Source: a virus (lineage: Duplodnaviria; Heunggongvirae; Uroviricota; Caudoviricetes). From it: a stretch of DNA of 14,983 nt. The stretch lies in IMG/VR virus record IMGVR_UViG_2529292981_000041. One strand, written 5' to 3'. This document shows, piece after piece, positions 166 through 13,723 of the stretch (positions within the stretch are counted from its first letter, which is position 1; each line of letters starts with the position of its first letter). The notes below the pieces were generated by a model. It was not told the DNA's origin. It saw nothing but the letters and a program-made list of their open reading frames with translations, and made no database searches. A program made the position numbers and the translations under genes.

Positions 166-246
166 TTTAATTAAATAATTTTCACCGCAAAAAGTGCCAA
201 AAATCGCAAAATGACTACACCAGTGACTACACCGTTCGGTGCACTG

Positions 247-276
247 TATGAAACAACGTGGAACAAATAGACACAA
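247..276 (-). promoter_or_regulatory. Three tandem 10-bp TTGTT-type repeats (minus strand: ttgtgtctat ttgttccacg ttgtttcata)
   Basis: The 15-mer aacaacgtggaacaa at 252-266 is identical to 7716-7730 and differs by one base from the reverse complement of 13684-13698. Confidence 0.35.
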
Positions 277-387
277 GAAATATACAGGCGGATCATCTTT
301 CCAGGGGGAAGCGCACCAATTCATGAGGGGCGTTAATGTCGATATGGGGATCCCCACCTACCGGAATTTTTTTCCGGTTAAACGTTA

Positions 388-498
388 ATCAGGCTGGTGG
401 GCTTTACCTGTTCGGTAGGTGTTATGATTATCGTAATACCTTTCCCCCAATGGGGTAAAAGCATCAACCGTAACGAAAGTCGTTATGGTTGCCACTGA
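388..498 (+). pseudogene. Degraded fragment resembling the C-terminal region of a large terminase, opposite orientation to the island terL
   Basis: The 18-mer atcaggctggtgggcttt at 388-405 is the exact reverse complement of 1519-1536 inside terL, where it encodes IRLVGF. The plus frame here reads IRLVGFTCSVGVMIIVIPFPQ, against terL IRLVGFDTWNATHLRTQLQGAGFEVEPFPQ, then stops at 496-498. Confidence 0.3.
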
Positions 499-607
499 TA
501 CCCCAAATTTGGGTATCACGAGTAAGCCCCAAAATCTGGGTGTTACTCTTACTACCCAAACTACGGGTAGTTTCCGTAGTTTCATGGTCGAGTTGCAGAT
601 CTGCAAC
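444..607. repeat. Cluster of short inverted repeats (CCCAAA..GGG type) plus a perfect 16-bp palindrome
   Basis: Imperfect 21-bp palindrome gataccccaaatttgggtatc (498-518); ccca-aaatc-tggg (about 528-540); ctaccc-aaactac-gggtag (about 552-570); perfect palindrome gttgcagatctgcaac at 592-607. Confidence 0.4.
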
Positions 608-863
608 TCCCCCATTAACCACAGGCGAATTTCCGCCTTCGGTCATTCCTTAATCATCTGCGTAATCATAATGATTATTCAGCAAGCGCAATTTTGCGCT
701 TTGCTTAAAGTTCAGCGAGTTACCGCGCCGACTTCCTCAAATTGAGGTTTCCGAAAATATCAGCGGGTTAGCGATTAAGCTGACCATTAATTAAACTGCG
801 AAAATGTCGTAGTTGTGAGGGGTGTAGCCAACCCATTTTTGGGCCGTCGGGAATATCAACCAG

Positions 864-1145
864 TTACCGCCGCAACCGCTCCGGCTTCTTCCAGTGGTAC
901 GTTATTTTCTCCTTCTCCCGATACATCTCCACGCGGCGACGGTAGGCCAGCAACTCAAGAACTCTGGTTCGTATGTTGCGCATATCCACGCCATTAAGTT
1001 CTATACCATCACGGCGCATCACCTCAGCAACAACACGCGCATAGTTTTCGGCTGTCACGCTGTCCGGCAGCGTGGCCTGTTCGTCAGCCTGCTGGCTGAT
1101 TCCGGCAACGCGGCGGATTAATCCCGTTATTTCGGCTTCTGTCAT
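864..1145 (-). CDS. Hypothetical protein, last gene of the packaging operon (93 aa from ATG at 1145; a GTG at 1169 would give 101 aa)
   Basis: ORF MTEAEITGLIRRVAGISQQADEQ... lies directly downstream of terL and overlaps its stop. No recognisable motif. Confidence 0.5.
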   Translation of the reverse strand: MTEAEITGLIRRVAGISQQADEQATLPDSVTAENYARVVAEVMRRDGIELNGVDMRNIRTRVLELLAYRRRVEMYREKEKITYHWKKPERLRR

Positions 1146-1158
1146 GCTGCTGACCTCA

Positions 1159-2820
1159 TTACACCCCACTAAATTCTTCCAGTTTCTGGCGGTGGCTGTC
1201 GCTTATATCAAAAGCAAAATCCTCATGCTCTGCCTGGAATGTACCAAACGCCATCAGCGCCGCCACGCTCGGGTCTATCTTGTTCGGTGATTTTTTCTTG
1301 TTCGGCTTGATATTGGCGTTCGCGTCACTCTGCATCACGACGTTACTCATCGACCAGGACAACACCGGATCGCCACGATGCACAATCACCCTGCGGTTAA
1401 CAAAAACTTCGAACGATTTCGCCGCCGGACTGAATCTGAGGTAGGTTTGCGGGAACGGCTCCACCTCAAAACCTGCCCCCTGTAATTGCGTTCTGAGATG
1501 CGTGGCGTTCCACGTATCAAAGCCCACCAGCCTGATATTAAATTTCTCCGCGTCCTGCATGATGTCATCTCTGATCCGGTCGTAATCAATGCAGTCGCCA
1601 GGCGTTGTGCGTATCCAGCCTGCTTTAGCCCACTGACGATAGATGGCGCGGTTTTTATTGGCGGGGTTCTGTAGCTGGAACTCCGGCAGATAATGACGGG
1701 AAACCAGCATAATGGTTTTACCTACCGGAAAGGCATAGCACACGCTGGAAATATCGCTTGTGGATGATAAATCCAGCCCCGCGTAACACTCCTGGCCGTG
1801 TAAATCTTCCTCTGTGAACGTTCCGGCACACTCAGCCCATGCGCCGTTACCCATCCACGGGGTAGCCCCCTGGCACCAGATATTAAATCGCTTTGTCATC
1901 ATCTCCACCCACTGCGACGGAATACCCCGCGCTTTCTGGATGGTTGAGGCCAGTTTTTCACGATCCACGGAAACATCAATATTAGGGTTCGCCTTTATCC
2001 ACATCGCCGGATCATCAACCTCGTTTTCGTCGTCCAGTTCGTAAATCAGTACAAAAATTGAATCGTTGACCTCTTCGCCGTCCAGGATCTGGCAGCAATA
2101 ATCATAGTGCTGCTTACAGGCTGAAACGACGTTACTGCCTGATGTGGTAATAGCAAATAACAGCCCTTCGGGACGTGCGCCCATCCCCAGCTCAAGCGCG
2201 GAATAAACGCCGTTATCGGGGTGCAAGTGGTATTCGTCCACGATGGAAAGGCTGGGGTTTGTTCCCTCGATGGTTGCCGCTTTTGCTGCCAGCGGCTTTA
2301 ACAGGCTGTTGCTTTTCGGGTGTATCACCTTATGCGCCTGAATATTCACCCGCCTGCGTAACGGTCGGGATAAAAGGCACATCTGACGCGCATCATCAAA
2401 GACGATCCGCGCCTGGTCACGGCTCACCGCTGCGGTGTAGATATCCTGCTGACCGTTCTCCATAATCAGAAACCAGTTAGCCAGAATCGCGGCGGTCGTT
2501 GATTTCGCATTTTTGCGCGGCACTTCGATAAAGGCGCTCGTATATTTGCGCCGTCCGGTGGCCTTAACCTTAAAGCCGAGAATGCACGCAAAGGCGAACT
2601 GCTGCCACGGCTCCAGCTCAATGGGTCTGCCACGCATCGGCCCTTTTACGTGCGGGCACACCCTGGAAAAGGCAATAAACCGATCCACAACCTCACGATC
2701 GAACGTGTAAAGGGGGCTTTTAAGGTCCGAAAAGTACCGTTTAACGGCCTGTTTCAGCCGTTTACAGGCCGGAATTTTGCCCGTTTTTACGTCTTCTGCG
2801 TACTTATTCCAGGCGGTCAA
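1159..2820 (-). CDS. terL: Terminase large subunit (Terminase_1-like), apparent TTG start
   Basis: 553-aa ORF with the terminase ATPase P-loop context FIEVPRKNAKSTTAAILANWF and a nuclease-type C-terminal half. The furthest in-frame start is TTG at 2818-2820, preceded by GAGGA. It overlaps the terS stop by 17 nt. Confidence 0.9.
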   Translation of the reverse strand: MTAWNKYAEDVKTGKIPACKRLKQAVKRYFSDLKSPLYTFDREVVDRFIAFSRVCPHVKGPMRGRPIELEPWQQFAFACILGFKVKATGRRKYTSAFIEVPRKNAKSTTAAILANWFLIMENGQQDIYTAAVSRDQARIVFDDARQMCLLSRPLRRRVNIQAHKVIHPKSNSLLKPLAAKAATIEGTNPSLSIVDEYHLHPDNGVYSALELGMGARPEGLLFAITTSGSNVVSACKQHYDYCCQILDGEEVNDSIFVLIYELDDENEVDDPAMWIKANPNIDVSVDREKLASTIQKARGIPSQWVEMMTKRFNIWCQGATPWMGNGAWAECAGTFTEEDLHGQECYAGLDLSSTSDISSVCYAFPVGKTIMLVSRHYLPEFQLQNPANKNRAIYRQWAKAGWIRTTPGDCIDYDRIRDDIMQDAEKFNIRLVGFDTWNATHLRTQLQGAGFEVEPFPQTYLRFSPAAKSFEVFVNRRVIVHRGDPVLSWSMSNVVMQSDANANIKPNKKKSPNKIDPSVAALMAFGTFQAEHEDFAFDISDSHRQKLEEFSGV

Positions 2821-3160
2821 GCTCGTCCTCTTCTTCTGTTTCCGGTGGATTTTTACGGCGGCTTATCGGGTCAAAACCGAGCAAGGAGGCCATTTTTATC
2901 ATCACTCTTTCCGCGTCGGATTTCGCGCTTAATGCGGGGTTTCTGCTCTCTCCGCCCTGACTGTTAACAATGCTGAACCCGCGCGCCGCAAGGTCTGCGA
3001 CGGCTTTCCGGTATATCGAGTAATTGACGCAATACAGTTCCAGATTGCTCCAGTCGGCGGGAGTCAGGTCACCCCGTTCCGCAAGCTGCCGCGATTTTTC
3101 CCGCCACTGCTTCACGGCGATATCATCCAGGTAGGCGGGGGCTTTCGGTGGTCTTGCCAT
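2804..3160 (-). CDS. terS: Terminase small subunit, P27 family
   Basis: 118-aa ORF starting MARPPKAP, the RPPK N-terminal signature of P27-family small terminases, with an acidic C-terminus; sits immediately upstream of terL. Confidence 0.8.
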   Translation of the reverse strand: MARPPKAPAYLDDIAVKQWREKSRQLAERGDLTPADWSNLELYCVNYSIYRKAVADLAARGFSIVNSQGGESRNPALSAKSDAERVMIKMASLLGFDPISRRKNPPETEEEDELDRLE

Positions 3161-3214
3161 ACTTATTTTTTCGCCAGATTATTTTTCAAAAAATTCCCGT
3201 GCATAAAAATTTGA

Positions 3215-3265
3215 GGAGGCGGTCGGTGCCCGGCGGGGTCGGGTTTGTCCTGAAAACGCCCCCCA
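3215..3265. other. Candidate cos region (GC-rich block between HNH and terS)
   Basis: ggaggcggtcggtgcccggcggggtcgggtttgtcc sits in the only sizeable non-coding gap of the packaging operon, about 60-100 nt upstream of the terS start. Placement is by analogy with HK97-like HNH/TerS/TerL cos systems. Confidence 0.25.
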
Positions 3266-3283
3266 CCCCGTCATACAGCCTCA

Positions 3284-3466
3284 TCAGCGATTGCGGAAAC
3301 ATTCCATAACCTCGCGGTCACGGTCGGTTAATCGCTTCGCTGTGATGCGTTCTGCGCGTCCTGACGCTTTATCTTTATGCCCTGTTTCCTGTGTCTTCCA
3401 TGCGTCACGCTGCCTTATAAGTCCACGGATAAGGCGGTTTTGTTCCCGCTCATTCATCAGCGTCAT
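3284..3466 (-). CDS. Possible small basic protein (60 aa) between HNH and terS
   Basis: ATG at 3464-3466, MTLMNEREQNRLIRGLIRQRDAWK...; Arg/Lys-rich; overlaps the HNH stop by a few codons. Could instead be non-coding sequence around cos. Confidence 0.25.
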   Translation of the reverse strand: MTLMNEREQNRLIRGLIRQRDAWKTQETGHKDKASGRAERITAKRLTDRDREVMECFRNR

Positions 3467-3890
3467 ACATCCAGTTATTGCGGTTAGCGGCCCGTTCTTC
3501 CTCTTCACGAAACCCACCTGCGGCACGCTTGCTTTTTGTTGCCGGATCAAGCCATTTCGTTTTCTGGTTATGGCACGCCTGGCACAATGGCTGATGGTTC
3601 CATTCGGGCCAGAAGAGAACATCATCACCGCCATTAATCGGGATAATGTGATCCACCACCACGGCGGGCGTATATATCCCCTTCTCAAGGCATCGCACGC
3701 ATAACGGGTTTTTACTCAGATACATGGCGCGGTATTTGTCCCACTGTCTGGAGTACCCACGCGCGCGGCGGTGTCCTCGTCTGGCATCCTCTGCACGCCA
3801 TGCCGCCCGCCTGTGCTCCTCACACTTGCCGGACTTCACGCGCCTGTTACAGCCTGGTTCTGTGCATCGTCTTAATGGTTGCCACGGCAT
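3450..3890 (-). CDS. HNH endonuclease (packaging-associated)
   Basis: 146-aa ORF with Cys pairs CTEPGCNRR and CVRC, conserved His/Asn spacing (VVVDHIIPINGG ... NHQPLCQACHNQK). Its ATG shares one base with the connector stop. Confidence 0.85.
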   Translation of the reverse strand: MPWQPLRRCTEPGCNRRVKSGKCEEHRRAAWRAEDARRGHRRARGYSRQWDKYRAMYLSKNPLCVRCLEKGIYTPAVVVDHIIPINGGDDVLFWPEWNHQPLCQACHNQKTKWLDPATKSKRAAGGFREEEERAANRNNWMYDADE

Positions 3891-4186
3891 CAGTACACCC
3901 CCACATCACGGTAAGCCGTCCAGAGTGCACCAATCGTCATGGGTACGCGTGTTTTTGCGTTATCCGCGACAATCTGGCGATTTTCATACAGGTGAGCGAT
4001 AAACATCATGCAGCCAATCTTTATGGCTGGCGTGAACGCCAGCCCGTCATCAAAGCGCCTGCCTATGTGTATCTGGCACGCCTCAAGCGATGCGGCGATG
4101 TATCCGCTGATTAACTGGTCTTCCTCGTCGCCATCGATGCGGCAATGGAGTTTCACTTCTTCCAGGGTGATAAGTTCTTCTGTCAT
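3890..4186 (-). CDS. gp6-like head-tail connector protein
   Basis: 98 aa, MTEELITLEEVKLHCRIDGDEEDQLISGYIAAS..., the typical N-terminal motif of phage gp6-like connector proteins. ATGA overlap with the upstream gene. Confidence 0.65.
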   Translation of the reverse strand: MTEELITLEEVKLHCRIDGDEEDQLISGYIAASLEACQIHIGRRFDDGLAFTPAIKIGCMMFIAHLYENRQIVADNAKTRVPMTIGALWTAYRDVGVY

Positions 4187-4521
4187 TTTTCCGCGCCCTC
4201 ACGACAAAGAATTTCAAGGCGTGTCCTGGCGGCATCCGGCAGCGGCTGCCCGATGATATTCAGTACACGCCCCGCCAGCGGCCCCGTATTGACCTTTATC
4301 CGGCTGGTGGCGTTGATGTCCTTCCTGTAGCGTATCCATATCCTTACCGTTCCAGTCGCCAGTTCTGCACCCGATGAAATGGCCTCCTTGCTGCTGATCA
4401 TGTTCACGCTTGCCCAGAGTGTGTGACCGTCCACCCACGTTTCGAGTATTTCGCCGGTTATATCCCTGGTCTGTTTCAGGGTCTGAATCGTTACCCTGTC
4501 ACGCAGTCGCCCTATGTTCAT
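4183..4521 (-). CDS. Head-closure / head-tail adaptor protein (start MNIGRL)
   Basis: ATG at 4519-4521 overlaps the portal TGA stop (ATGA). Product MNIGRLRDRVTIQTLKQTRDITGEILETWVDGHTLWASV... fits phage head-tail joining proteins. Confidence 0.65.
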   Translation of the reverse strand: MNIGRLRDRVTIQTLKQTRDITGEILETWVDGHTLWASVNMISSKEAISSGAELATGTVRIWIRYRKDINATSRIKVNTGPLAGRVLNIIGQPLPDAARTRLEILCREGAEK

Positions 4522-5729
4522 TCCGGTTTTTCTCCCTCGCTGATTTTTACTTCCTGTTTCCATGCCTGGCTGAACTCATCACCACCATCACGCGGGGACA
4601 GCCCTTCACGTTCGCGGGCTTCGTTCGGGCACATAACGCCGGATTTGATGCCGCGTTCATAGGTGGCAAAGCGTTCGCCAGGAGTGGCCCGTAACAGGTC
4701 CGCGCTGTCAAACTCCACCTGATACCGGATACCAGGTACAGGTGAGGCCACCAGCAGGGCGTTTTTTATCTGCTGCTCAAAGTTCGCCAGCCACGGGCGC
4801 ATCGTCATGGTGAGAAATGCGCGGCTTGCCTCGCTGAAATTGCTGTAGGTGCTGTTGCTGTATTCCTGCAAAAAAATCGGCGAGACGTTGAACATTCGGG
4901 CGATGTCTTCAATGGTGAAGCGACGGGAGGCCAGCCATTCAGCATCCTGATTACTCATGCCCAGCTGCTGATAGCTCATACCCCCTTCAAGGATGGGCGT
5001 TTTTCCGGCGTTTCTGGCCCCTTTGTAGCGTTCCAGTGCGGCTAATGCCTGTTTACCCTTCACGCCGTCCAGCCACTCGCCTGACGTGATAACCCCTGCC
5101 GCCATCATGCCATCACGCATCACGCTCGCGCCGTGGCGTTGTTGGGCCAGCCCAAGCCCCAGCGATTCGCGGCAGATGGTTACAGGTGAGCGCCCCATAA
5201 AACCGTCATCCGTGGAGTAACGAAGGTGGAGAACCTCCCACGGTAAATAGTTGCGGGTGTTTCCGGTGTAGGCGTCAGTGATGCAGTAGCGCCAGTTATG
5301 CTCACCTGTCTGCTCCACGTTCACCGACTGCGGCGGGTAAGGATGTAAAGCCACCGGAAAACCATCACGCCCCCACTGAATCACCGCATAAGCATTACCG
5401 TTTAACAGGCAGTGGCGGATCATCATTCGCTTAAACTGGTAGGGGGTTTGCCATGCGTTCGGGCGCTCGTTGAGGATGTGATCGACCGGATGAGAATCAA
5501 GCCACTCTCGGGCCTCCTTCCCCTTCTCATTGCGTACCAGGTACAGGTAACACGGCATGGTAGCCACCGCCTCAGAGATGACCGTGACGGCGTTCATGAC
5601 GGCGGGCAGTGATTCCGCTGTCCCCGATGATACGTACTCACCCGCCCCCGTGTTCGATGTGCCAGCCAGCGCCATAAACTCATCAAGCGTCATGCTGCGC
5701 TGCTCTTTTTTTCTTCTGAAAGGCCACAT
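4518..5729 (-). CDS. Portal protein, HK97 family
   Basis: 403-aa ORF with portal-type segments (LLNGNAYAVIQW, DIARMFNVSPIFL). Start is preceded by GGGGG and lies 1 nt after the protease stop. Confidence 0.9.
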   Translation of the reverse strand: MWPFRRKKEQRSMTLDEFMALAGTSNTGAGEYVSSGTAESLPAVMNAVTVISEAVATMPCYLYLVRNEKGKEAREWLDSHPVDHILNERPNAWQTPYQFKRMMIRHCLLNGNAYAVIQWGRDGFPVALHPYPPQSVNVEQTGEHNWRYCITDAYTGNTRNYLPWEVLHLRYSTDDGFMGRSPVTICRESLGLGLAQQRHGASVMRDGMMAAGVITSGEWLDGVKGKQALAALERYKGARNAGKTPILEGGMSYQQLGMSNQDAEWLASRRFTIEDIARMFNVSPIFLQEYSNSTYSNFSEASRAFLTMTMRPWLANFEQQIKNALLVASPVPGIRYQVEFDSADLLRATPGERFATYERGIKSGVMCPNEAREREGLSPRDGGDEFSQAWKQEVKISEGEKPE

Positions 5730-5730
5730 A

Positions 5731-6288: not shown

Positions 6289-6311
6289 AATTTTTTCACC
6301 TGTAAAACAGA

Positions 6312-6333
6312 GAAGGGGCTTTTTAGCCCCTTC
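6312..6333 (-). terminator. Perfect 9-bp GC-rich hairpin 10 nt after the capsid gene stop (possible partial terminator)
   Basis: gaaggggct-tttt-agccccttc. On the minus strand it is followed by tctgtttta, then the protease start. Confidence 0.45.
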
Positions 6334-6342
6334 GGTGTGCTG

Positions 6343-7500
6343 TTAATCGTCGTCCTGCGGCAGTTCCAGAATCTTTATAGCGTTCGAATCCACCACGCCA
6401 CCGCCTAAATATTTCTGCGTGAAAATTTTGATAAAGCCCGGCTCTGTCAGGTTGTCCGGTCTGGTGCGCACGCCCGTTTCATGATCAACGATGTAATAAC
6501 CGCGTTTGAAGTCACCCAGGGCGATAACGTTATCCGGCATAAATTCCAGATACTCCACCGGAAGCCCCAGCAACGTATCAGGATCACCCGCCTGTAAACG
6601 GTCGCGCCAGATGTAATCGCCGTTCGCGTTCTTCACCTTCTGAAGTTTTGCCGCCGTCGTGGAGTTAACCACCCAGACCGCGTTTTTGCGGTATTTTTTA
6701 CGTAATGCAAATTTCAGGTCGATCAGCGGGTCCGCAGATGTCCACGCCAGAGATTCGGAAGGTTTAATTACCTGCAACGTACCAAAATCACGCTCTTTGT
6801 CGTTCTTCTCTGCACGGGGTACGGATAAAAAACCTTTTGCTTTTTTGTCACCGTCGCCCACAACCAGATCGCTTTCTTCGGTTTCCGTGAAGGTGTCGCC
6901 AATCTCACCCGTCAGCCATGAAAGGATGTCCACATCGGAAAAATCCACGATTTCCTGTGTGGTGCGCGGGTACGCATAGACCGGATACAGCTTAATGCTC
7001 ACCTCGTTAATCTGCGGGGTGCTGGTCTGTTCGCGTGCCTTACCCTCTTCACCGTGGTTAACGGTCGCACCGCCAGCGGAAACAAGCTGCTTAAACTCGT
7101 TGCTGCTGATTTTCTTCACGGTACAGATGCGGCGCATGGTGGATTCATCCGCCAGCATTCGCATGATTTCGGTGTTCAGCTCGGGGATAACGGTATAACC
7201 ACCATCAGCGGGAACGCCTGTACTTAATGCGCGGGTTTCACCTGTCAGGATGTAGTTGCGTAGTTCTGCGGGGTCAGTGGTCTGACTGCTTTTACCTGGC
7301 TTGCTGCGCTCTTCGTCTGCAATGGCTTCAAGGCGGGAAATGTCTTTATCGAGGGATTCAGCTTTAGCGCGTAATTCGTCAAATTTTGCGCCCTCAGCAT
7401 CGTTAAGACTGCGGTTTTCTTTTTCCGCGTTCTCCAGCATGTCGCGCATCTGATTTTTAATGGCGGTTTTCTGCTGGCGTAATTCGATTATTCTCGGCAT
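6343..7500 (-). CDS. Major capsid protein, HK97 fold, with N-terminal delta (scaffold-like) domain
   Basis: 385 aa; charged, coiled-coil-like first ~110 residues (LRQQKTAIKNQMRDMLENAEKENRSLNDAEGAKFDELRAKAESLDKDISRLEAIADEE) followed by an HK97 MCP-like body. Confidence 0.9.
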   Translation of the reverse strand: MPRIIELRQQKTAIKNQMRDMLENAEKENRSLNDAEGAKFDELRAKAESLDKDISRLEAIADEERSKPGKSSQTTDPAELRNYILTGETRALSTGVPADGGYTVIPELNTEIMRMLADESTMRRICTVKKISSNEFKQLVSAGGATVNHGEEGKAREQTSTPQINEVSIKLYPVYAYPRTTQEIVDFSDVDILSWLTGEIGDTFTETEESDLVVGDGDKKAKGFLSVPRAEKNDKERDFGTLQVIKPSESLAWTSADPLIDLKFALRKKYRKNAVWVVNSTTAAKLQKVKNANGDYIWRDRLQAGDPDTLLGLPVEYLEFMPDNVIALGDFKRGYYIVDHETGVRTRPDNLTEPGFIKIFTQKYLGGGVVDSNAIKILELPQDDD

Positions 7501-7537
7501 AAAAAAAGTCCTGGGGTTAAGTAAGGAACTCCAGGAC
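7501..7537 (-). terminator. Intrinsic-terminator-like hairpin plus 7-U tract ending at the capsid ATG; the only SD-like AGGA lies in the 3' arm
   Basis: Minus strand: gtcctggagtt-ccttactt-aaccccaggac then ttttttt then ATG. Stem is 7 bp, one mismatch, 3 bp. Confidence 0.45.
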
Positions 7538-7590
7538 GCGGCAAAAACTCAACCGTTTTTCATAAGGAAATCAGCAATCGCACCGTTCGT

Positions 7591-7638
7591 TTTCCCGCCT
7601 GGTAATGAATATTGGCGAGAACATTAACAGGCGGGAAA
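7591..7638. repeat. Long inverted repeat (about 16-bp stem, 14-nt loop) in the capsid-operon leader
   Basis: tttcccgcctg g taatg ... cattaa caggcgggaaa: 11 perfect pairs, one mismatch, 5 more pairs. Confidence 0.5.
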
Positions 7639-7710
7639 GTGGCCCCAGCGTCCTGGCACCACGGGCGAGAATAATCATGATTCAGTTCGGGTAAAATATG
7701 CCGATCCGCT

Positions 7711-7740
7711 CAGTGAACAACGTGGAACAACCACGAACAA
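7711..7740 (-). promoter_or_regulatory. Three tandem 10-bp repeats (ttgttcgtgg ttgttccacg ttgttcactg) over a weak sigma70-like promoter for the capsid operon
   Basis: Minus strand: TTGTTC, 16 nt, TATTTT just downstream of the repeats. The weak -35 with helical-turn-phased repeats suggests activator dependence. Confidence 0.4.
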
Positions 7741-7759
7741 ATAATTTACAAAACATGAC

Positions 7760-7781
7760 AAAAAGCCGGATTGCTCCGGCT
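7760..7781 (-). terminator. Rho-independent terminator after the PerC-like gene
   Basis: Minus strand: agccgga-gcaa-tccggct followed by ttttt, 7 nt after the stop at 7788-7790. Confidence 0.5.
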
Positions 7782-7787
7782 GTGTGA

Positions 7788-8060
7788 TTATCTGTCCTGG
7801 TAATTTCGCCATATTTCATCACCAGCACCATCCATACCCATTTCGGCATAAGTGCGATCGACCGCCTTTTTCAGGTCTCCGTAATTATCCGGCGGCTCCG
7901 GTGGCCTCTGTGCCTTCCTGGAACATTCCAGCCGTCGCATCGTGATGTGATGCCGTTCCTTGTCTGTCTCCACCAGTTGCATGACTTCACCCCATCGCGC
8001 CGACGCTCTCCGGTAAAAGCCTTTCGCCTCCAGTTCTTCCGCTATGCGGTCATGTACCAT
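7788..8060 (-). CDS. Small regulator, PerC/Pch-like (putative transcriptional activator)
   Basis: ATG at 8058-8060 with a GGGGA SD; 90 aa, MVHDRIAEELEAKGFYRRASARWGEVMQ... The N-terminal AEELE-KG-x-RRA-x-RW pattern matches my recollection of PerC-family proteins. Unverified. Confidence 0.5.
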   Translation of the reverse strand: MVHDRIAEELEAKGFYRRASARWGEVMQLVETDKERHHITMRRLECSRKAQRPPEPPDNYGDLKKAVDRTYAEMGMDGAGDEIWRNYQDR

Positions 8061-8072
8061 CGTCCCCACCCC

Positions 8073-8483
8073 TCAGAACGGAATATCATCACCGTAAGGG
8101 TCATCGCCTTCCGCTGGTGGCTGATTACCCTGTGTGCCTGTGGTCTTGCGTCTGTTCCCGCCAGGACGTGCCGCACGGGCACTGATTACGCTGTCTGCAA
8201 TAACCTGATACCCCCGCCGCGTTTCCCCGTTCTGTCCGGTTCACTGGCTTACCTGCATCGTGCCGGATACGCTGGCAACATCGCCTTTTTGATGTTTAGC
8301 CAGGAAATCGGCCTGTTTGCCAAATGCGATAACCGATAACCATAACGTCGCCTGTCCGTCATGTGCCTGGCTGCATGGCAGCGATACCGCCATACGCGCC
8401 AGCGTCATCGGTGTTCCCTTGCTGGTCTGTTTTACCTGCGGGTCGTCCACCAGCCGCCCGTAAGCCGCTATCTGTGCTGTCAT
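8073..8483 (-). pseudogene. ssb: SSB-like gene interrupted by an in-frame TGA (8241-8243) at the position of the conserved Trp
   Basis: N-terminal ORF 8241-8483 (MTAQIAAYGRLVDDPQVKQ...TLWLSVIAFGK...) has OB-fold SSB character. The same frame continues for 55 codons after the TGA and ends with the SSB tail signature ...PPAEGDDPYGDDIPF*. The TGA aligns with E. coli SSB Trp88 (RTRKWTDQ against VSQ*TGQ). Confidence 0.6.
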
Positions 8484-8731: not shown

Positions 8732-8764
8732 TTGCCACCTCAATTTATATATATATAGAAACAT

Positions 8765-9082
8765 GTGCGGGTTATGCGGGTTATTGGGTTATCTTAGCGT
8801 GCTAACCATTTTTTATCCTTTTATATCAGCATGTTGCAAAACGCCCTGTTTATTATTTGCTCACCACATAACCCGCAAAACGCTCAAAATAACCCGCAAA
8901 CGGGGTTTTTTCTGCGGGTTACGCATGACTGTCCGGTGTTACTTCAGTTATTCGCCTGCGGGTTATAATCGTGCTTTTGCGGGTTATAAATGCCCTTTTG
9001 CGGGTTACGTGCGGGTTATTGATTTCCTTTATATTCATGCACTTAATACACTTATACACAGGATAACCCGCATAACCCGCAA
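8765..9082. repeat. Iteron-type replication origin: at least 11 copies of the 9-mer GCGGGTTAT / ATAACCCGC, AT-rich tracts and a DnaA-box match
   Basis: Copies at 8767, 8776, (8785 degenerate), 8868, 8889, 8914, 8958, 8979, 9000, 9011, 9063 and 9072, in both orientations; three are spaced exactly 21 bp. (TA)6 at 8746-8757; TTATACACA at 9052-9060. Sits immediately downstream of the replication gene. Confidence 0.7.
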
Positions 9083-9103
9083 TTTTTTTCCTCACACAGG
9101 GGA

Positions 9104-11236
9104 TTAATCTTCATCATCAGGCTGGAACATCAGCACGTAAAAAACATGCTGCTTACCCCCAATCTTGCCCAGCGCCTTTTTTTTGTATCGGCGATCGCTT
9201 CCCTTCTCCAGCATTCCGGCAGCATCCAGGGCACGCGCAAAATGCGCCGGATTAAATCCCTTCGCTATCTCACTCTCAAACACGTGCGGGAACGTGTAAT
9301 AGCGCATCTCGTCATCTTCGTTGCGAATGCTCCCTTTTCTGTATCCGGCAAGCTCTTTAATCGGTAAATCACGCTCATCTGTATTGGGGTACGGAAGGTA
9401 GCGGCTAAACCCAAACGACGACAAAAACGCCTCAGCCTGTTCAACCATCTGTTTAAATTCCCTGTTACCTGTGCCGAACTCCTTCACCCAGGCATTAAAG
9501 TTATGCTGTATCGCGTCGCGGCATTCCTGCACGACCCAGCCAGTTACATGACCGGAAAGCACAAGCGCGGCCTCCAGTATGGCGAAACGTTCACCCACGC
9601 GGTGGACCTGCTCGCCGTAACTCTCCGGTATCAGGTTGCGCCACCGTTCGCGGCATTCCCTTACCGTGTCCTTTGCCTCCTGCTGGTGGCCTGCCAGCCA
9701 TTTAACCCACTCACGACCCGCCGCCCCGTGATTTGCTGTCCAGGCATCCTTTAACGCGTCAGCATGTTCCTTACCGTTGCTGTATTCGTGAAATTTCGTG
9801 GCTTTTTCCATCGGAACGTTAAGCAGTCGGACAAGCTGCCCCGCCTTAACTTTTATCCCCTCACTTTTGAGGAATGTCTCAACGTCCATTTCTCCGGTGC
9901 TGATTGCCACCGTTCGCCAGTGTTTGATCTCCCTGTTGCCGCCATCCTTCGCCCCCTGCAATTTCCCTGAACCGTTAAACAGCGTATAAGCAGACGTTGA
10001 CACTTCCCGCGCATTTCCGGCCTGGCCTATCTCATCCAGTGGTAAAAGCCCGTCATTATGGGCCTCGGCCTCATTGGCAATACCTAACGCCGTGCCGTAC
10101 CAGGTCAGCCGCTGCGCGTCCGGCTCTCCCCATAAACTTGATGCGATGTTCTGCGTGGTGGTCTTACCTGCCGATGACTGTTCGAAAAGATGCACCCCGA
10201 AGCCGTCAGCACCCACAAGGCCAATTAAAGGCGCTGCCAGTGACGTTGCCACACCCAGTATCATTGAGGCATTACCGCCAGCCAGCCGCGCCACGCTGTC
10301 GCGCCAGCCATCCGCCGTGCCCGCCACGGAATAACCGTTAATCGCGGCGCTTTTTCCGGTAAACAGGATCGGTTTTTCAGATTCACCAATGATCGAACCG
10401 TCCGGCATGATGTACGCGCCAAAATGCCAGCCCGTTGTTGTGCTTAACTGCCATTCCTCATGGCTTCCGCTTAACTGCATCCAGTCCGCCAGGATTGCCC
10501 TGTATTTGCCGTTGGTTGTCACGTTCAGCCCGTGATCTTTAAGTAACCGCCAGCCGTCACGGTCGCCGATACCACCACACGGGATCGCCATTGTGATGAC
10601 TTTATGGTTTGCGGTTTTTTTCCAGCGCATCACGCGGTAATGCTCTTTACCGATCGTCCCCGTTCCCAGTAGTTCAAGCGGAGAACATAACCACGTCTCA
10701 GGCCGGATAATTTCGCCTGACTGCTTATCCACTTTGGGCGTTACCCAGAAAACACCATCGGCGCGACTTTCAACGCGTGGCTTTAATTCGTCATCGCTAT
10801 GGCTTCCGGTATCTTTTTTCTTTACCGGAAACTCAATAACCAGACCATCAGAAAGATTCTGCCGCTCACGGGCCAGATATTCGCGCCAGTTCTCCACCTT
10901 CTGACCGTGCATTCCTTCGGGGTAAAAATTTGCGTCCTGAATATCTGCCGCCGCCAGCTTCTGACCAATCTTTTTGGTCTCCACCAAATCCAGTTCTCCG
11001 GCCTGGTACAGCCTTACGCGTTTTTTTCCATCCGGAACAATTTTCAGCGCATCAAGTTCGGCAAGCTGATTTGGCCCAAGCCACACAGGCGGAACATTAT
11101 CGCCGGATGCGGGGCCATCCTGCTCCTGCCATTGTTTCGCGTGCGACCAGGCATCACTACCCGCGAAAATAATTACCTCTGTGTCTTTGTGTTTTATTCC
11201 GCGTGGCTGTTTTTTTACGTTCGGTGCCAGTTTCAT
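9104..11236 (-). CDS. Replication initiator, primase/helicase-like P-loop protein (DUF927-like ATPase)
   Basis: 710-aa ORF with Walker-A-like HLFEQSSAGKTTTQN, adjacent to the iteron origin, analogous to P4 alpha or PICI Pri-Rep proteins. ATGA overlap with the upstream gene. Domain assignment is from memory. Confidence 0.75.
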   Translation of the reverse strand: MKLAPNVKKQPRGIKHKDTEVIIFAGSDAWSHAKQWQEQDGPASGDNVPPVWLGPNQLAELDALKIVPDGKKRVRLYQAGELDLVETKKIGQKLAAADIQDANFYPEGMHGQKVENWREYLARERQNLSDGLVIEFPVKKKDTGSHSDDELKPRVESRADGVFWVTPKVDKQSGEIIRPETWLCSPLELLGTGTIGKEHYRVMRWKKTANHKVITMAIPCGGIGDRDGWRLLKDHGLNVTTNGKYRAILADWMQLSGSHEEWQLSTTTGWHFGAYIMPDGSIIGESEKPILFTGKSAAINGYSVAGTADGWRDSVARLAGGNASMILGVATSLAAPLIGLVGADGFGVHLFEQSSAGKTTTQNIASSLWGEPDAQRLTWYGTALGIANEAEAHNDGLLPLDEIGQAGNAREVSTSAYTLFNGSGKLQGAKDGGNREIKHWRTVAISTGEMDVETFLKSEGIKVKAGQLVRLLNVPMEKATKFHEYSNGKEHADALKDAWTANHGAAGREWVKWLAGHQQEAKDTVRECRERWRNLIPESYGEQVHRVGERFAILEAALVLSGHVTGWVVQECRDAIQHNFNAWVKEFGTGNREFKQMVEQAEAFLSSFGFSRYLPYPNTDERDLPIKELAGYRKGSIRNEDDEMRYYTFPHVFESEIAKGFNPAHFARALDAAGMLEKGSDRRYKKKALGKIGGKQHVFYVLMFQPDDED

Positions 11237-11532
11237 TTCTTACCCCTGAATACGTTAAGCATCTTTTTTATTTCCTGAATATTGGCGCGTGCTTTCTCCC
11301 TGCTGGTTGGTTTACTGCGGGGCGCTGCCTGTACCAGAGAAAAATCACGATCGAACTGATAAACAGGCATAACGCAGTCATATTCGTAGCCTTCACGGCG
11401 GTAAGTGATGCGGCGTTCTCTCACGCTGATAATCGTCACGATGCCGCCGTACTGGTCGCGGTAAATATCCCCGCGCATGAATTTAGTGCGAGTTTTGCCG
11501 CTGTCAGTTAAGCCAGGATATTTAAGTTTCAT
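11233..11532 (-). CDS. Hypothetical protein (99 aa)
   Basis: ATG at 11530-11532; stop overlaps the primase start (ATGA); MKLKYPGLTDSGKTRTKFMRGDIYRDQYGG... Confidence 0.6.
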   Translation of the reverse strand: MKLKYPGLTDSGKTRTKFMRGDIYRDQYGGIVTIISVRERRITYRREGYEYDCVMPVYQFDRDFSLVQAAPRSKPTSREKARANIQEIKKMLNVFRGKK

Positions 11533-11537
11533 TATTT

Positions 11538-11798
11538 TTATTCCCCGATAGCGTGACCTGATAAGCCGTTAATCTTCTCTGATATGCTCTCTATTTTGCT
11601 GGTTGAACTATCCAGTAATTCAGAAACGGCTAATATTAATCTTGCAGTTGATTCATCGCGTTCATTATTCACCAGCGACTGAAGCCACATATTCATTACT
11701 TCGTTTGCTGCGTTGTTTAAAGATATTGCGCTGTTGGCAAGGCTTCTTAATTCACTGGTCGCCAGTTTATTATTTTTCATAGCGTTCGGCTCTCTCAT
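11538..11798 (-). CDS. Hypothetical small helical protein, AT-rich gene (start ATG 11798 or 11780)
   Basis: ORF ...MKNNKLATSELRSLANSAISLNNAANEVMNMWLQSL...; GC content visibly lower than flanking genes. Confidence 0.45.
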   Translation of the reverse strand: MREPNAMKNNKLATSELRSLANSAISLNNAANEVMNMWLQSLVNNERDESTARLILAVSELLDSSTSKIESISEKINGLSGHAIGE

Positions 11799-11961
11799 CA
11801 ATTAACCACAGCGCAACACTTCCTGACAGTTTTGCCAGAAGGCCAGCTAATGCGGATATATCACCATCATTTAATTTATCAGGGTATACCTCAAGAAGGC
11901 GGCAAATAATTTCTGTCTGGTGCGCACGTTCAGCGGCTTCGTGTAATGTAATTTCCTTCAT
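11770..11961 (-). CDS. Hypothetical protein (63 aa)
   Basis: ATG at 11959-11961 with a strong AGAGGTG SD; TAATG stop/start junction with the upstream gene; MKEITLHEAAERAHQTEIICRLLEVYPDKL... Confidence 0.5.
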   Translation of the reverse strand: MKEITLHEAAERAHQTEIICRLLEVYPDKLNDGDISALAGLLAKLSGSVALWLIDERAERYEK

Positions 11962-12146
11962 TAATGCACCTCTTTTAATTCATACACTGCTGAAATAATG
12001 ACTTGTGATAAGCCATATTCTGATGATTCGCTTCTCACCGCAGCAATAGCCGTCTGAACATTAACAGCCTTCACATTCTGAGCGATACCAATTGTGTGGC
12101 CTAGTGGGTTAACAGCGCTGGCAAATACACGGAAGGTTTTAAGCAT
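11961..12146 (-). CDS. Hypothetical protein (61 aa from ATG at 12146)
   Basis: ATG preceded by GGGGG; MLKTFRVFASAVNPLGHTIGIAQNVKAVNVQ...; AT-rich. Confidence 0.5.
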   Translation of the reverse strand: MLKTFRVFASAVNPLGHTIGIAQNVKAVNVQTAIAAVRSESSEYGLSQVIISAVYELKEVH

Positions 12147-12411
12147 GGCACACCCCCTGACGAATACGGGCGGCAAATACAGCAACACAACCTGACGGGC
12201 AACGGCTACGCGCTTCGCGTTCCGTCCAGGCGGTTACGTGGATGATTTGAGATTCTCCGGCACTCAGTGCCAGAAAACGCCACACAAAGGCCGTTTGTGT
12301 GTGTACAAGGTGTGGTATATGATTTACAGCAACCATAACGGCTCCTAGTTTACGTTGTTGGTTAGAAGCCCTGCGAGTGGTAACGACACTTGCGGGGCTT
12401 TGTCTTTTCAT
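12139..12411 (-). CDS. Possible first ORF of the leftward early operon (90 aa); could instead be an untranslated leader
   Basis: ATG at 12409-12411 with AAGGT SD, about 23 nt downstream of the predicted transcription start. Ala/Val/Arg-rich composition is not convincing. Confidence 0.3.
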   Translation of the reverse strand: MKRQSPASVVTTRRASNQQRKLGAVMVAVNHIPHLVHTQTAFVWRFLALSAGESQIIHVTAWTEREARSRCPSGCVAVFAARIRQGVCHA

Positions 12412-12428
12412 CGATTACCTTGATAAAG

Positions 12429-12509
12429 GTGTCAGCCACTATATTAGTAACGGGTGTCAGCCACGTCAATAGTGTTTTTCCGTTTTCTTGTGTGTATACT
12501 GTCAGCCAC
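12429..12509. promoter_or_regulatory. Three direct operator-like repeats (G/C)TGTCAGCCAC at 12429-12439, 12454-12464 and 12499-12509
   Basis: The 10-mer TGTCAGCCAC is exact in all three (copies 1 and 2 share the full 11-mer GTGTCAGCCAC). Copies 1 and 2 overlap the leftward promoter (transcription start and -35); copy 3 overlaps the -10 (TATACT, 12495-12500) of the rightward RHH gene. Confidence 0.5.
12441..12469 (-). promoter_or_regulatory. Near-consensus sigma70 promoter driving the leftward early/replication operon
   Basis: Minus strand: TTGACG (plus 12464-12469), 17-nt spacer, TAATAT (plus 12441-12446). Confidence 0.5.
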
Positions 12510-12530
12510 CTAATAACGAGGAAATCAGAT

Positions 12531-12710
12531 ATGGCAACAAAAGCAGTTAATGCAAAATCCAAAAAGCTTGAGGCTCGAGTACCACACGCAATAGCTGATG
12601 CTGTAGAAAATTTAAAGGAAGATGGCGAAAGTACAGGGCAATTTATCGTTTCGGCACTTGAAGGCGAGATCAAACGCCGCCAGCGCCGCAAGGCCAAAGA
12701 ATCAGAATAA
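12531..12710 (+). CDS. Ribbon-helix-helix-type DNA-binding protein, candidate repressor (59 aa)
   Basis: ATG at 12531 with GAGGA SD; MATKAVNAKSKKLEARVPHAIADAVENLKEDGESTGQFIVSALEGEIKRRQRRKAKESE has a strand-helix-helix arrangement typical of Arc/CopG-like proteins. Divergent from the main operon; followed by a plus-strand terminator. Confidence 0.5.
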   Translation: MATKAVNAKSKKLEARVPHAIADAVENLKEDGESTGQFIVSALEGEIKRRQRRKAKESE

Positions 12711-12767
12711 TCACTATCAGCGCCGTGGTGTGAGGTATTACGGCGCATTGCTATGCAGGACAACACA

Positions 12768-12941
12768 ATGACCGATAAAGAATTGACCAAAACATTATCA
12801 CCGGCACGGAAAAGACGGCGCAGAAAGATAGAGCATGAATCAGAAAGATTCGCACCATGTGCTTTTGCCCTTGAGCAATTCCTTAAAGAGTACAGGGAAA
12901 AGCGCTCATTGCAGGTATGGCAACGAACTGAACCAGACTGA
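12768..12941 (+). CDS. Hypothetical small basic protein (57 aa), second gene of the rightward unit
   Basis: ATG at 12768 with AGGA 8 nt upstream; MTDKELTKTLSPARKRRRRKIEHESERF...; the terminator lies about 95 nt downstream. Confidence 0.35.
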   Translation: MTDKELTKTLSPARKRRRRKIEHESERFAPCAFALEQFLKEYREKRSLQVWQRTEPD

Positions 12942-13036
12942 TTGCATTGCCCACCAGCCTGATAGCGGCTATCATCCCCGTGCTTATGTTTGGGATCACA
13001 CACACAAACGGCGCAGCGGGTTATCTGTTCAGAAAG

Positions 13037-13064
13037 GCGGCTCCATTTCGGGGCCGCTTTTTTT
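13037..13064 (+). terminator. Rho-independent terminator of the rightward regulatory unit
   Basis: gcggctcc-atttc-ggggccgc (8-bp stem including one G-U pair) followed by seven T. Confidence 0.55.
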
Positions 13065-13210
13065 ATACCTGAAAAACCCCAATTTTGTTGTTTTTCAGTT
13101 TCACCAGGGCGAACGAATCCCCGCCCACGTTCTGGCGTATATTCAATCTTCATGGTTATAGCTCTGTGTTCAGATGATTGATGTGTGGCGGCTGCGTGCC
13201 GCCAGCGTGA

Positions 13211-13399
13211 TTAATGAACTGCCTTGCAGCTATCCTTCCAGGCCAGAACCTCGGATAAAGACCAGCCAACGGAACGACCGCCAAGTTTACGACGTGATGG
13301 GAATTGTCCGGCCTTTTCCAGGCGGTAGCGACACGTACGGCTAAGGCCGGTTAGTTTTTCGCATTCTTTTTCACGTATAAACCGATCAGTGCTTAACAC
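13211..13399 (-). CDS. alpA: AlpA-family regulator / excisionase-like protein (GTG start)
   Basis: 62 aa; CEKLTGLSRTCRYRLEKAGQFPSRRKLGGRSVGWSLSEVLAW matches the AlpA/Xis helix-turn-helix pattern (TGLSRSTIYR...FP..I.LG.RSV.W...EV..W). GTG at 13397-13399 preceded by a strong AGGGGGG SD. Confidence 0.8.
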   Translation of the reverse strand: MLSTDRFIREKECEKLTGLSRTCRYRLEKAGQFPSRRKLGGRSVGWSLSEVLAWKDSCKAVH

Positions 13400-13683
13400 T
13401 ATTGCCCCCCCTTTCGTTTCTTAAAGAGTCATCAGGTGTCTTATTGTGTCGTATTGTTCCCGCTAGAGTGATGAATGGCAAATATTGAGGATGTATGATT
13501 TACAGAAAATGAAACAGTAAGAATAAAATCTTTTAAATTCATGTTAATACAAAGGCATAAAATATTGTTTCATGCCTTTTTTCTCGCTCTTTAAAGAGTG
13601 ATTCGCTAGTGTATAAAAAACCAGTGACACATTAAAAATCAGCCACTTATAAATCTGTATGCTTTTTCGCCTCTTGTTCGTGG

Positions 13684-13723
13684 TTGTTCCACATTGTTGC
13701 TCATTGTTGCACGTTGTATCTGT
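13684..13723 (+). promoter_or_regulatory. Four tandem 10-bp TTGT-type repeats (ttgttccaca ttgttgctca ttgttgcacg ttgtatctgt) next to a 16-bp perfect palindrome
   Basis: Same repeat family as 247-276 and 7711-7740. Perfect palindrome cagtatgcgcatactg at 13733-13748; a plus-strand TTGCAC, 16 nt, TATACA promoter-like arrangement overlaps. Confidence 0.35.

Follow-up and report, generated by a model that had tools for sequence, protein, structure and literature searches.

Described systems for comparison

At attL of KplE1 (CPS-53), the core is followed by a pair of excisionase blocks, the Int arm sites and finally the int ATG, an order shared by the element in the DNA analysed here (the window, i.e. 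the whole stretch of 14,983 nucleotides), and the GTTCG excisionase sites I1–I5 include three at 10-bp spacing (Panis et al. 2010, PMC2951348). In particular, the mapped TorI sites have the cores GTTCG, GATCG and GTCCG, three sites being separated by 2 nt (PMC2951348), and immediately ahead of the intS −35 of KplE1 lies GTTCGtcatgGTTCGcttcaGATCG. The KplE1 and window integrases agree in their Pfam domains, and TorI doubles as a transcription regulator (of PintS), as proposed here for AlpA. However, TorI represses PintS, while AlpA is proposed to activate two promoters; TorI sites were reported on attL only, while the arrays of the window element occupy both arms; the arm sites of KplE1, with a TAAA motif, do not resemble the 12-bp tandems of the window; and TorI is not scored as PF05930 and shares only 29% identity with AlpA (42 residues).

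P4 and the element in the window are both phage satellites. As in the window element, the core of P4 attP is flanked on either side by two 12-bp arm repeats in tandem, and 10-bp-phased T[TC]GGA and CGGA repeats, read from the sequence, lie between arm repeats and core on the int side. P4 Vis and the window AlpA both belong to PF05930 and are ~40% identical, and Vis is described as a single small protein serving excision, the late promoters PLL and Psid, and Pint. However, the repeat sequences are unrelated (GGA in P4, GTTC in the window), the P4 late genes are also under Delta and the helper Ogr/Cox, and P4 makes no capsid of its own.

Furthermore, coliphage 186 Apl and P2 Cox are described as binding att sites and promoters through direct repeats one helical turn apart (PMC7498355). 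They differ from the case studied here in repressing early or lysogenic promoters, in protein family and box sequence, and in belonging to prophages rather than satellites. In lambda, Xis monomers with a winged-helix fold bind head to tail to the adjacent direct sites X1-X1.5-X2, between an Int arm site and the core. Xis-type folds appeared among the structural matches to the window AlpA model, but lambda has three sites on one arm, and lambda Xis is not known to activate late genes. On the other hand, the Q-like antiterminator AlpA of Pseudomonas aeruginosa shares only the name and a superficial arrangement of promoter element, leader and terminator: it has >140 residues and a 21Q-like fold, reads a single GGGACG between −35 and −10, and was absent from the sequence matches of the window AlpA (E up to 1) and from the 50 fold matches listed. 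Membership of the window AlpA in that family was rejected on size, fold and absence among the matches listed.

Phased arrays in the window

The window is part of a capsid-forming phage-inducible chromosomal island (cf-PICI) of the EcCIEDL933 type, hosted by E. coli O157:H7 and inserted in tqsA (Table 1). An earlier note on this DNA had described one family of 10-bp-phased repeats at three loci, and this observation was confirmed as GAACAA/TTGTTC hexamers at 10-bp spacing with the relative orientations first given. The 15-mer AACAACGTGGAACAA is exact at 252–266 and 7716–7730 (+) and has one mismatch at 13684–13698 (−). The extents were corrected: the first locus has the units AAACAA, GAACAA and ACACAA; the second comprises three GAACAA units (7715–7740) and a fourth, TTACAA (7746–7751), at 11-bp spacing; and the third, earlier given as 13684–13723, has five units. 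The conserved core of the units is GTTC. The first reading had missed three features: a weaker fourth array that lies shortly before the alpA start, the tandem pair of 12-bp repeats near the left end, and a right arm, outside the window, that repeats the whole left-end module.

Table 1. Positions of the features discussed, in window coordinates
Feature	Position	Strand	Remarks
att identity block TGCTGTTAT, left junction with tqsA	129–137	.	tqsA homology stops at 137
IHF-like site AATCAACGTGTTA (WATCAANNNNTTR), left arm	155–167	−	consensus match only, read from sequence
two tandem 12-bp repeats ATGACTACACC, GTGACTACACC, left arm	211–233	+	putative integrase arm-type sites
left-arm array AAACAAcgtgGAACAAatagACACAA	251–276	+	three units, 10-bp phase; putative AlpA (excisionase) sites
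major capsid protein gene	6343–7500	−	opens the capsid/packaging operon that follows the operator
hairpin GTCCTGG..CCAGGAC + U7	7501–7545	−	end of a ~160-nt structured leader, directly before the capsid AUG
putative capsid-operon promoter	7668–7695	−	−35-like TTTACC (7695–7690), 16 bp, −10-like TATTCT (7673–7668)
late-operon operator, TTTGTAAattaTTTGTTCgtggTTGTTCcacgTTGTTC on the gene (−) strand	7715–7751	+	four units spaced 11, 10 and 10 bp
intrinsic terminator after perC	7764–7781	−	isolates the late promoter from upstream transcription
PerC-family gene	7788–8069	−	not required for the array
alpA, 62 aa, PF05930	13211–13399	−	Pfam E = 5e-17; proposed array binder
proximal array GAACAAtacgACACAAtaagACACCT	13434–13459	−	overlaps the −10-like hexamer of the predicted alpA promoter
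distal alpA-promoter array ATACAAcgtgCAACAAtgagCAACAAtgtgGAACAAccacGAACAA	13674–13719	−	five units, ~275–320 bp upstream of the alpA start
int, P4-type tyrosine integrase	13766–14983	−	Arm-DNA-bind_3 N-domain; Pfam domains

With up to 3 mismatches, AACAACGTGGAACAA had 7 matches against 0.58 expected, a number reached in none of 200 shuffles. Moreover, the phased pattern AACAA-N5-AACAA-N5-AACAA had 7 matches (0.69 expected), every one at the three loci, and GAACAA-N4-GAACAA had 10 (1.84 expected). When all hexamers were compared de novo, only GAACAA formed two strict three-unit, 10-bp-phased arrays, while 100 Markov shuffles never gave more than one such array, and Tandem Repeats Finder reported a period of 10 at 13684–13717. 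Two further arrays lie in the right arm just beyond the window, and each of the four main arrays in the complete element contains the 14-mer ACAACGTGNAACAA (0.00 expected). Judged from the sequence, the view of the repeats as a protein-binding array, phased by one helical turn and common to three functionally distinct places, is supported.

Recombination arms

In both arms of the complete element, two copies of GTGACTACACC are followed by 17 bp and a 10-bp array, the 12-bp pair being identical in the right arm (L001, 17520–17542) and the att 9-mer TGCTGTTAT recurring at the right junction (L001, 17671). The far arm held this module of array and 12-bp repeats in 18 of 18 distinct relatives with both ends captured, while 45 distinct int-proximal arms, from many Enterobacterales, had the order array, 15–20 bp, two 12-bp tandem repeats, 20–45 bp and int ATG. 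Self-similarity of the arm segments was highest at lag 10. The earlier note had raised the possibility that the left-end copy belongs to a degraded duplicate of the int-alpA region; it is instead a duplicate of the opposite attP arm, as recombination arms would be expected to show. The IHF-like site AATCAACGTGTTA is kept in L003 and L004, whose attB sites differ. Excisionase sites on both arms are unusual, those of lambda and KplE1 being confined to one.

The window integrase combines the arm domain PF13356 with PF22022 and PF00589. The separate tandem 12-bp repeats, rather than the arrays, are its more likely arm sites, as these repeats have the P4 layout and change with the class of the integrase N-terminal domain where AlpA is identical (L037 and L039 vs. 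L038; L001 vs. L003). The earlier suggestion that integrase arm binding explains the 10-bp repeat found no support, the adjoining tandems fitting it better.

Arrays upstream of alpA and the capsid operon

Among 49 distinct regions upstream of alpA, the distal array retained 5–6 phased units, also in those with diverging flanks; its distance of 275–320 bp from the start codon speaks against a role in autoactivation. The proximal array overlaps the −10 of the predicted alpA promoter (13481–13453, −; TTGCCA, 17 bp, AACAAT), a position that would suggest repression rather than activation. In PICIs whose int and alpA are separated by an ORF (L002, fis-type), no array was found upstream of alpA, so autoregulation via arrays would not be universal. 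An array lies close to int, although AlpA of EcCICFT073 was reported to have no effect on int expression.

Across 62 distinct cf-PICIs with unrelated upstream flanks, no block other than the late operator was conserved in the region before the capsid gene. TT[TG]AC lies 17–19 bp past the fourth unit in 58 of 59 relatives, with a 4/6 match to the −10 a further 16–18 bp beyond. A stricter consensus scan missed the putative capsid-operon promoter of the window. For the structured leader with its hairpin, the 206-nt fold gave z = −4.3. The island origin is located elsewhere than the arrays, at the TGCGGGTTAT iterons (8759–9088).

Candidate binding proteins

AlpA is the best candidate for the shared factor that the earlier note had postulated, and the TTGTTC motif is most likely the docking site of this small excisionase/activator, as judged from its position and from the systems compared. 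The protein models as an excisionase-type winged helix (pLDDT 86): the GIsul2 excisionase (PDB 8c3t) was the best match by sequence and by fold (TM 0.83–0.90), followed in fold by RdfS, Pukovnik Xis, TorI and BldC. AlpA works as excisionase in PICMI (PMC10803314), and published work reports that alpA is needed for cf-PICI induction, that its autoregulation is positive, and that AlpA overexpressed without helper phage triggers both excision and replication and turns on PalpA. Moreover, the 14-mer ACAACGTGNAACAA was found in 21 of 21 arms with the AlpA helix R[ST]CRYR and was absent from the one mosaic with the same integrase class and a type-2 AlpA. Among integrases with the GTGTATCAC arm motif, the AlpA helix CRTTRY[IM]MEK goes with TTGTTC-type arrays, and the helix CRMHRYNLEK of L019 and L024 with GTACA/GTATA arrays; these hints of covariation amount to two contrasts of one lineage each, and the integrase N-domain of L019 and L024 also differs from that of L007, L043 and L081.

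A factor encoded elsewhere, with AlpA acting indirectly, is unlikely but ranks first among the alternatives for the arrays, or at least for the late operator. It could be a host winged-helix response regulator (OmpR/PhoB/ArcA/TorR type), proteins that bind TGTTA/CTGTTCATAT-like direct repeats at 10–11 bp, or else an excisionase or late regulator of a helper phage. TTTGTAAATTATTTGT, the late operator, hardly varies among the 62 cf-PICIs although their AlpA proteins are only ~60–70% identical, which could mean a more conserved binder than AlpA; in addition, helper phages turn on alpA via some factor, and excisionase cross-talk between PICIs and helpers has been reported (PMC11773190). However, the motif lies in both recombination arms, where an excisionase encoded by the element is expected, AlpA overexpressed without helper suffices for excision, replication and PalpA, and the element-specific array variants (L019/L024; cgtg signature) favour an element-encoded reader.

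Slightly less probably, the Arm-DNA-bind_3 N-domain of integrase binds the arrays as a second class of arm-type sites, so that integrase, as in P4 Int autoregulation, would occupy the arms and the alpA and capsid promoters. Arrays in both arms resemble arm-type sites more than most excisionase sites, the window integrase has a bona fide arm-binding domain, the lambda sites P'1-3 are likewise tandem at about one helical turn, and the L019/L024 contrast is confounded by the integrase N-domain. Against this, the 12-bp pair already shows the layout of the P4 arm repeats and varies in step with the integrase N-domain class, while the TTGTTC motif is constant across integrase classes only 22–69% identical; in the mosaic L064 (Int1 with AlpA2) the fine array sequence goes with AlpA; in KplE1, with the same integrase family, the 10-bp GTTCG repeats are excisionase sites and the arm sites are different; and the inducible factor is not integrase, PalpA and island induction depending on AlpA.

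It is very improbable that the copies arose by chance or as recombinational duplicates, or are DnaA-box-like sequences, with no common protein-binding role. Loci 1 and 2 share the exact 15-mer, maybe a recent copy, and some unit spacers give a loosely DnaA-box-like TGTTCCACA, but chance is excluded by the statistics, phase and core are kept across genera while spacers and flanks diverge, and TGTTCCACA is two mismatches from TTATCCACA, not the single one first noted, and relies on a CCAC spacer not conserved between units or relatives. The least credible binder and late-operon activator is the PerC-family protein, which the earlier note had named: PerC proteins are transcription regulators and perC lies directly upstream of the operator, but about half of the 62 distinct late regions, including those of all other genera, keep the operator without a PerC match in the locus, the EcCICFT073-like L003 has a 96%-identical PerC and no array in its late region, and the att-arm arrays would be left unexplained.

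Proposed role of AlpA

The preferred reading, to which a probability of roughly 0.6 was assigned from sequence and comparison, is that the arrays are AlpA operators through which excision is coupled to autoactivation of alpA and activation of the capsid operon; coupling of excision to late-gene activation, first raised in the earlier note, would be the most economical account. AlpA would combine the roles of excisionase (recombination directionality factor) and master activator of the island, its monomers lying head to tail on one DNA face, one per helical turn. On the attP arms, with arrays 17 bp from the paired integrase arm-type sites and a second, core-adjacent array in the int-side arm, it would bend the DNA and cooperate with integrase and IHF, favouring excision. 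The arrays upstream of alpA would mediate the published positive autoregulation. At the capsid/packaging operon, the four-unit array, 17–19 bp before a weak −35, would place unit centres at about −56 to −87, an upstream-activator position from which AlpA may switch on the capsid, portal, protease and terminase genes. This type of design is known from P4 Vis, 186 Apl and KplE1 TorI and is so far undescribed for these islands. If true, one helper-induced protein would tie together excision, its own amplification and late-gene expression.

Phased repeat arrays and their element

The 10-bp-phased repeat family that the earlier note had placed at three separate loci was confirmed, with AACAACGTGGAACAA occurring exactly at positions 252 and 7716 and, on the opposite strand, with one mismatch at 13684–13698. 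The loci stood, and their boundaries were slightly corrected, to 251–276, to 7715–7740 with a fourth unit at 7746–7751, and to 13674–13719. A total of 7 relaxed matches to AACAACGTGGAACAA were found in the window (0.58 expected), the enrichment of phased patterns was confined to the three loci, and GAACAA was the sole hexamer of the window with two strict three-unit arrays at 10 bp, of which shuffled sequences gave at most one. Every array comprised 3–5 units at 10 bp, that is, at least three direct repeats at about one per helical turn, as in excisionase arrays, and a self-similarity peak at lag 10 was detected in 44 distinct arm segments. Moreover, the 14-mer ACAACGTGNAACAA appeared four times (0.00 expected), its sites being the two arms and the upstream regions of alpA and the capsid operon. 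The family is thus common to the attachment site and the promoters of one element, as for excisionases that double as regulators.

The window matched E. coli O157:H7 strain SS TX 754-1 at 100% identity, where tqsA is split by the element, and all its large genes lay on the minus strand. As in phage-inducible chromosomal islands of the capsid-forming type (cf-PICIs), int, alpA and pri-rep were accompanied by the island's own HK97-type capsid, protease, portal, connectors, HNH, TerS and TerL in ~15 kb, and the gene content was the same as that of the prototype EcCIEDL933. The AI-2 exporter gene tqsA was split near its 5′ end, appearing in window 1–137 and from 17672 onward in L001, the full element including the right arm. 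Other chromosomal sites (phoQ-roxA, allC-allE) held related islands with near-identical arms and integrases 89–92% identical, and therefore target choice changed with few integrase changes. The ssb gene, a pseudogene in this island, was intact in a close relative (L002). A scan of the window against Rfam gave no matches.

Features of the island (window coordinates unless L001 is stated)
Feature	Coordinates	Strand	Remarks
int, P4-type tyrosine integrase with Arm-DNA-bind_3 domain	13766–14983	−	
alpA, PF05930	13211–13399	−	
DUF927 primase	9104–11236	−	
PerC-family gene	7788–8069	−	
ssb remnant	8241–8483 and upstream	−	L001 10573–10983; annotated pseudogene with internal stop
HK97-type capsid, protease, portal, head completion protein, connector, HNH, TerS, TerL		−	After PerC-family gene
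9-bp identity block TGCTGTTAT	129–137; L001 17671		Based on matching junctions
GAAACA/GAAACA/AAAACA array	L001 17632		Adjoins core on int side
IHF-consensus match	155–167		Left arm
Weaker array GAACAA/ACACAA/ACACCT	13434–13459		

Attachment arms and the assignment of their sites

The full element was retrieved, and its region from the int start codon to the resumed tqsA was compared with the left end. The right arm repeated the left-end module in the same orientation, presenting two copies of GTGACTACACC at 12-bp spacing, then 17 bp, and then a 10-bp-phased [T/A/G]AACAA array. By this comparison, the left-end copy corresponds to the right attP arm and is not a degraded duplicate of the int-alpA region, as the earlier note had allowed. 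Excision would leave the two modules flanking TGCTGTTAT. On the int side, the order was core, proximal array, distal array, 12-bp tandem and int, which places the arrays between the core and the arm sites, and in the left arm the array was distal to the 12-bp tandem, an arrangement less typical for excisionase sites. The far arm also carried the module in 18 out of 18 distinct elements with both ends captured. As expected of integrase arm sites, the 12-bp repeats stood in tandem and in direct orientation on both sides of the core (window 211–233 and L001 17520–17542). This layout of GTGACTACACC is that of phage P4, in whose GenBank record each side of the core has a tandem pair of 12-bp copies annotated as "attP arm sequence repeats". 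A second copy of the arm module was found 234 bp upstream of the int-proximal one in three related loci (L043, L069 and L082), which indicates tandem fis-PICIs or the remnant arm of a neighbouring element.

A possible alternative is that the arrays are a second class of integrase arm sites. A total of 175 related loci were gathered from E. coli genomes, GTDB genomes and IMG/VR, and in 45 distinct int-proximal arms the order was constant: phased array, 15–20 bp, 12-bp tandem, 20–45 bp and the int ATG. The 12-bp motifs covaried with the integrase N-terminal sequence, six N-domain classes having six motifs, and differed at identical AlpA (L037 and L039 vs. L038; L001 vs. the EcCICFT073-like PICI L003). 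The array, for its part, was TTGTTC-like in nearly all elements. The exceptions were L019 and L024, in which the AlpA recognition helix was CRMHRYNLEK (vs. CRTTRYxMEK) and the array read GTACA/GTATA/GTACA, with a 12-bp motif, GTGTATCAC, resembling that of L007, L043 and L081, which have ordinary AlpA and ordinary arrays. Furthermore, a cgtg-spaced 14-mer was present in 21 out of 21 arms paired with the AlpA helix R[ST]CRYR and absent from the sole mosaic, L064, which had the same integrase class and a type-2 AlpA. The L019/L024 and L064 contrasts, each a single lineage, speak for AlpA as the protein that reads the arrays. Further cases of covariation were sought by a word-indexed protein search, which gave 19 close AlpA relatives; L025 was the sole further AlpA to combine the L019-type helix with a long upstream flank, and its surroundings were those of an unrelated prophage and held no integrase. 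L018 was too short for this comparison, and L019 had a single GTACA array within the 20 kb examined.

Putative operators upstream of the capsid operon and alpA

The sequences preceding the capsid gene were compared for 62 distinct cf-PICI regions. Their upstream flanks were mutually unrelated, with TTTGTAAATTATTTGT[TG]CG, followed by two further phased xGTTC units, almost invariant among them. In 58 out of 59 regions, TT[TG]AC appeared 17–19 bp after the fourth unit, and a 4/6 match to the −10 element lay 16–18 bp beyond; this spacing would centre the units at about −56 to −87, an upstream-activator position. The proposed promoter rests on this spacing conserved in relatives, a scan with the strict sigma-70 consensus having called no capsid promoter. 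Of the 175 loci, 74 had the operator block on the gene strand, close to the 75 with a capsid-gene match, so the block seems to move together with the capsid cassette. The capsid promoter is shielded from upstream transcription by a terminator after perC. The capsid-operon leader (7500–7700, minus strand) folded much better than shuffled sequences (z = −4.3) and ended in a hairpin, GTCCTGG..CCAGGAC, followed by U7 directly before the capsid AUG, with the sole Shine-Dalgarno-like AGGA within its stem. It looks like an attenuator or a translational gate. The fis-type cf-PICIs had a different conserved leader hairpin, GTGGCACTCAGACGTGAGCCGCCAC.

At the alpA promoter, 49 distinct regions upstream of alpA genes of this type were aligned. 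The distal array was kept as five or six phased [GA]AACAA units amid diverging sequence, and the proximal array as three or four [GA]ACACA units overlapping a predicted −10. Autoactivation of PalpA by AlpA has been published for EcCICFT073, whose alpA was reported to be identical to that of EcCIEDL933. PICIs with an extra ORF between int and alpA were devoid of this array. In those int-ORF-alpA PICIs, a GC-rich hairpin followed by a T-run, with the Shine-Dalgarno sequence inside, was observed just before the alpA ATG (L002 17400–17450; L007–L020, e.g. L008 9945–9980), which suggests that termination or translation, instead of the upstream array, controls alpA there. In the window, a terminator-like hairpin on the plus strand (13553–13582; aaaggcat..atgcc, then six T) points against alpA and suggests an antisense transcript across its 5′ region. 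The palindrome CTCTTTAAAGAG and the related TCTTAAAGAG (13588–13599 and 13419–13428) were both conserved in the 49 relatives. Their TTAAAG core resembles the box of P2 Cox for activation of the P4 PLL promoter, and they could be a target of the helper inducer.

AlpA as the candidate reader and its rivals

The AlphaFold model of AlpA (pLDDT 86) best matched the GIsul2 excisionase (TM 0.83–0.90), followed by RdfS, Pukovnik Xis, TorI and BldC, and AlpA is thus a small basic protein with the predicted winged-helix fold of excisionases, encoded by the element itself. A paper describing PDB 8c3t was sought in the literature and none was found. The Vis protein of P4 belongs, as AlpA does, to PF05930. 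In the P4 attP (L005; 3968–4005 and 4045–4070), 10-bp-phased CGGA / T[TC]GGA repeats with the geometry of the present arrays were observed between the annotated 12-bp arm repeats and the core, and Vis plausibly binds them. Elsewhere in P4 (9176–9205), the 10-bp "ori type 2 repeats" read TTAAAG and were Cox-box-like.

The binding sites of TorI, the excisionase of the KplE1 prophage, have been mapped and mutated, with cores GTTCG, GATCG and GTCCG and one block of three sites separated by 2 nt (PMC2951348). In the K-12 sequence, GTTCGtcatgGTTCGcttcaGATCG lies directly before the intS −35, with the IntS arm sites and then the intS ATG coming next. The three Pfam domains of IntS are also those of the integrase of the window. 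The best-conserved core of the array units was GTTC, and therefore both motif and site order reproduce those of an experimentally dissected attL.

The most economical model, to which a probability of about 0.6 is given, would be that the AlpA arrays couple excision, alpA autoactivation and capsid/packaging activation. AlpA would bind the arrays as a phased multimer, working as an excisionase at the arms and activating both its own promoter and that of the capsid/packaging operon. This design is that of P4 Vis, 186 Apl and TorI, and its logic is not new. No description of an AlpA operator, of a cf-PICI late promoter or of this design in PICIs was found in the literature searched.

A host or helper winged-helix protein is another possible reader of the arrays, especially at the late operator, whose conservation exceeds that of AlpA itself; the AlpA-linked changes of the arm arrays favour the island's own protein. 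The PerC-like protein, proposed as a binder in the earlier note, is not the reader, since operator and PerC occur independently: about half of the 62 cf-PICI regions had the operator without a PerC gene in the locus, and L003, with a 96%-identical PerC, was without the operator block. Antitermination at the terminator-like leader by a Q-like AlpA of the Pseudomonas kind was rejected as a family match, since the AlpA of the window is a 62-aa winged helix and the Pseudomonas "AlpA" is an unrelated, larger protein (>140 residues), absent among the sequence matches up to E = 1 and among the 50 fold matches listed; moreover, the arrays lie upstream of the −35 element, in contrast to the Pseudomonas-type binding element between −35 and −10. 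Finally, the resemblance to DnaA boxes is incidental, as TGTTCCACA has two mismatches to TTATCCACA, not the single one claimed previously, and the CCAC spacer is conserved neither between units nor in relatives. Origin-like TGCGGGTTAT iterons were found instead just downstream of the DUF927 primase gene, in two inverted sets (8759–8792, 8865–8900, 8957–9030 and 9063–9088), and this stretch (8759–9088) is probably the replication origin of the island.

Implications for PICI regulation

From genetics, AlpA is known to be the master switch of Gram-negative PICIs. The arrays of the alpA promoter might also serve as the entry point of helper induction, a helper Xis-type winged-helix excisionase, produced upon prophage induction, cross-binding the TTGT-rich arrays and firing alpA, after which AlpA would autoactivate, although we regard this as improbable. 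The lambda sites X1 and X2 read ATGTTGT and ATGTAGT, and one int-side arm unit reads TTGTAG. If it were true, the inducer of Gram-negative PICIs would be identified, and the cassette-borne late operator would be a universal plug-in promoter that any allele of AlpA could read.

Should the arrays be operators of AlpA, its regulon in a cf-PICI would comprise both att arms, alpA and the capsid/packaging operon, and a concrete attP map would be available (core, IHF site, integrase arm sites and excisionase sites). Furthermore, more than 60 distinct cf-PICIs of several genera would share a late promoter that is conserved and portable (TTTGTAAATTATTTGTTCG...), of use in the engineering of PICI-based delivery particles and in satellite annotation.
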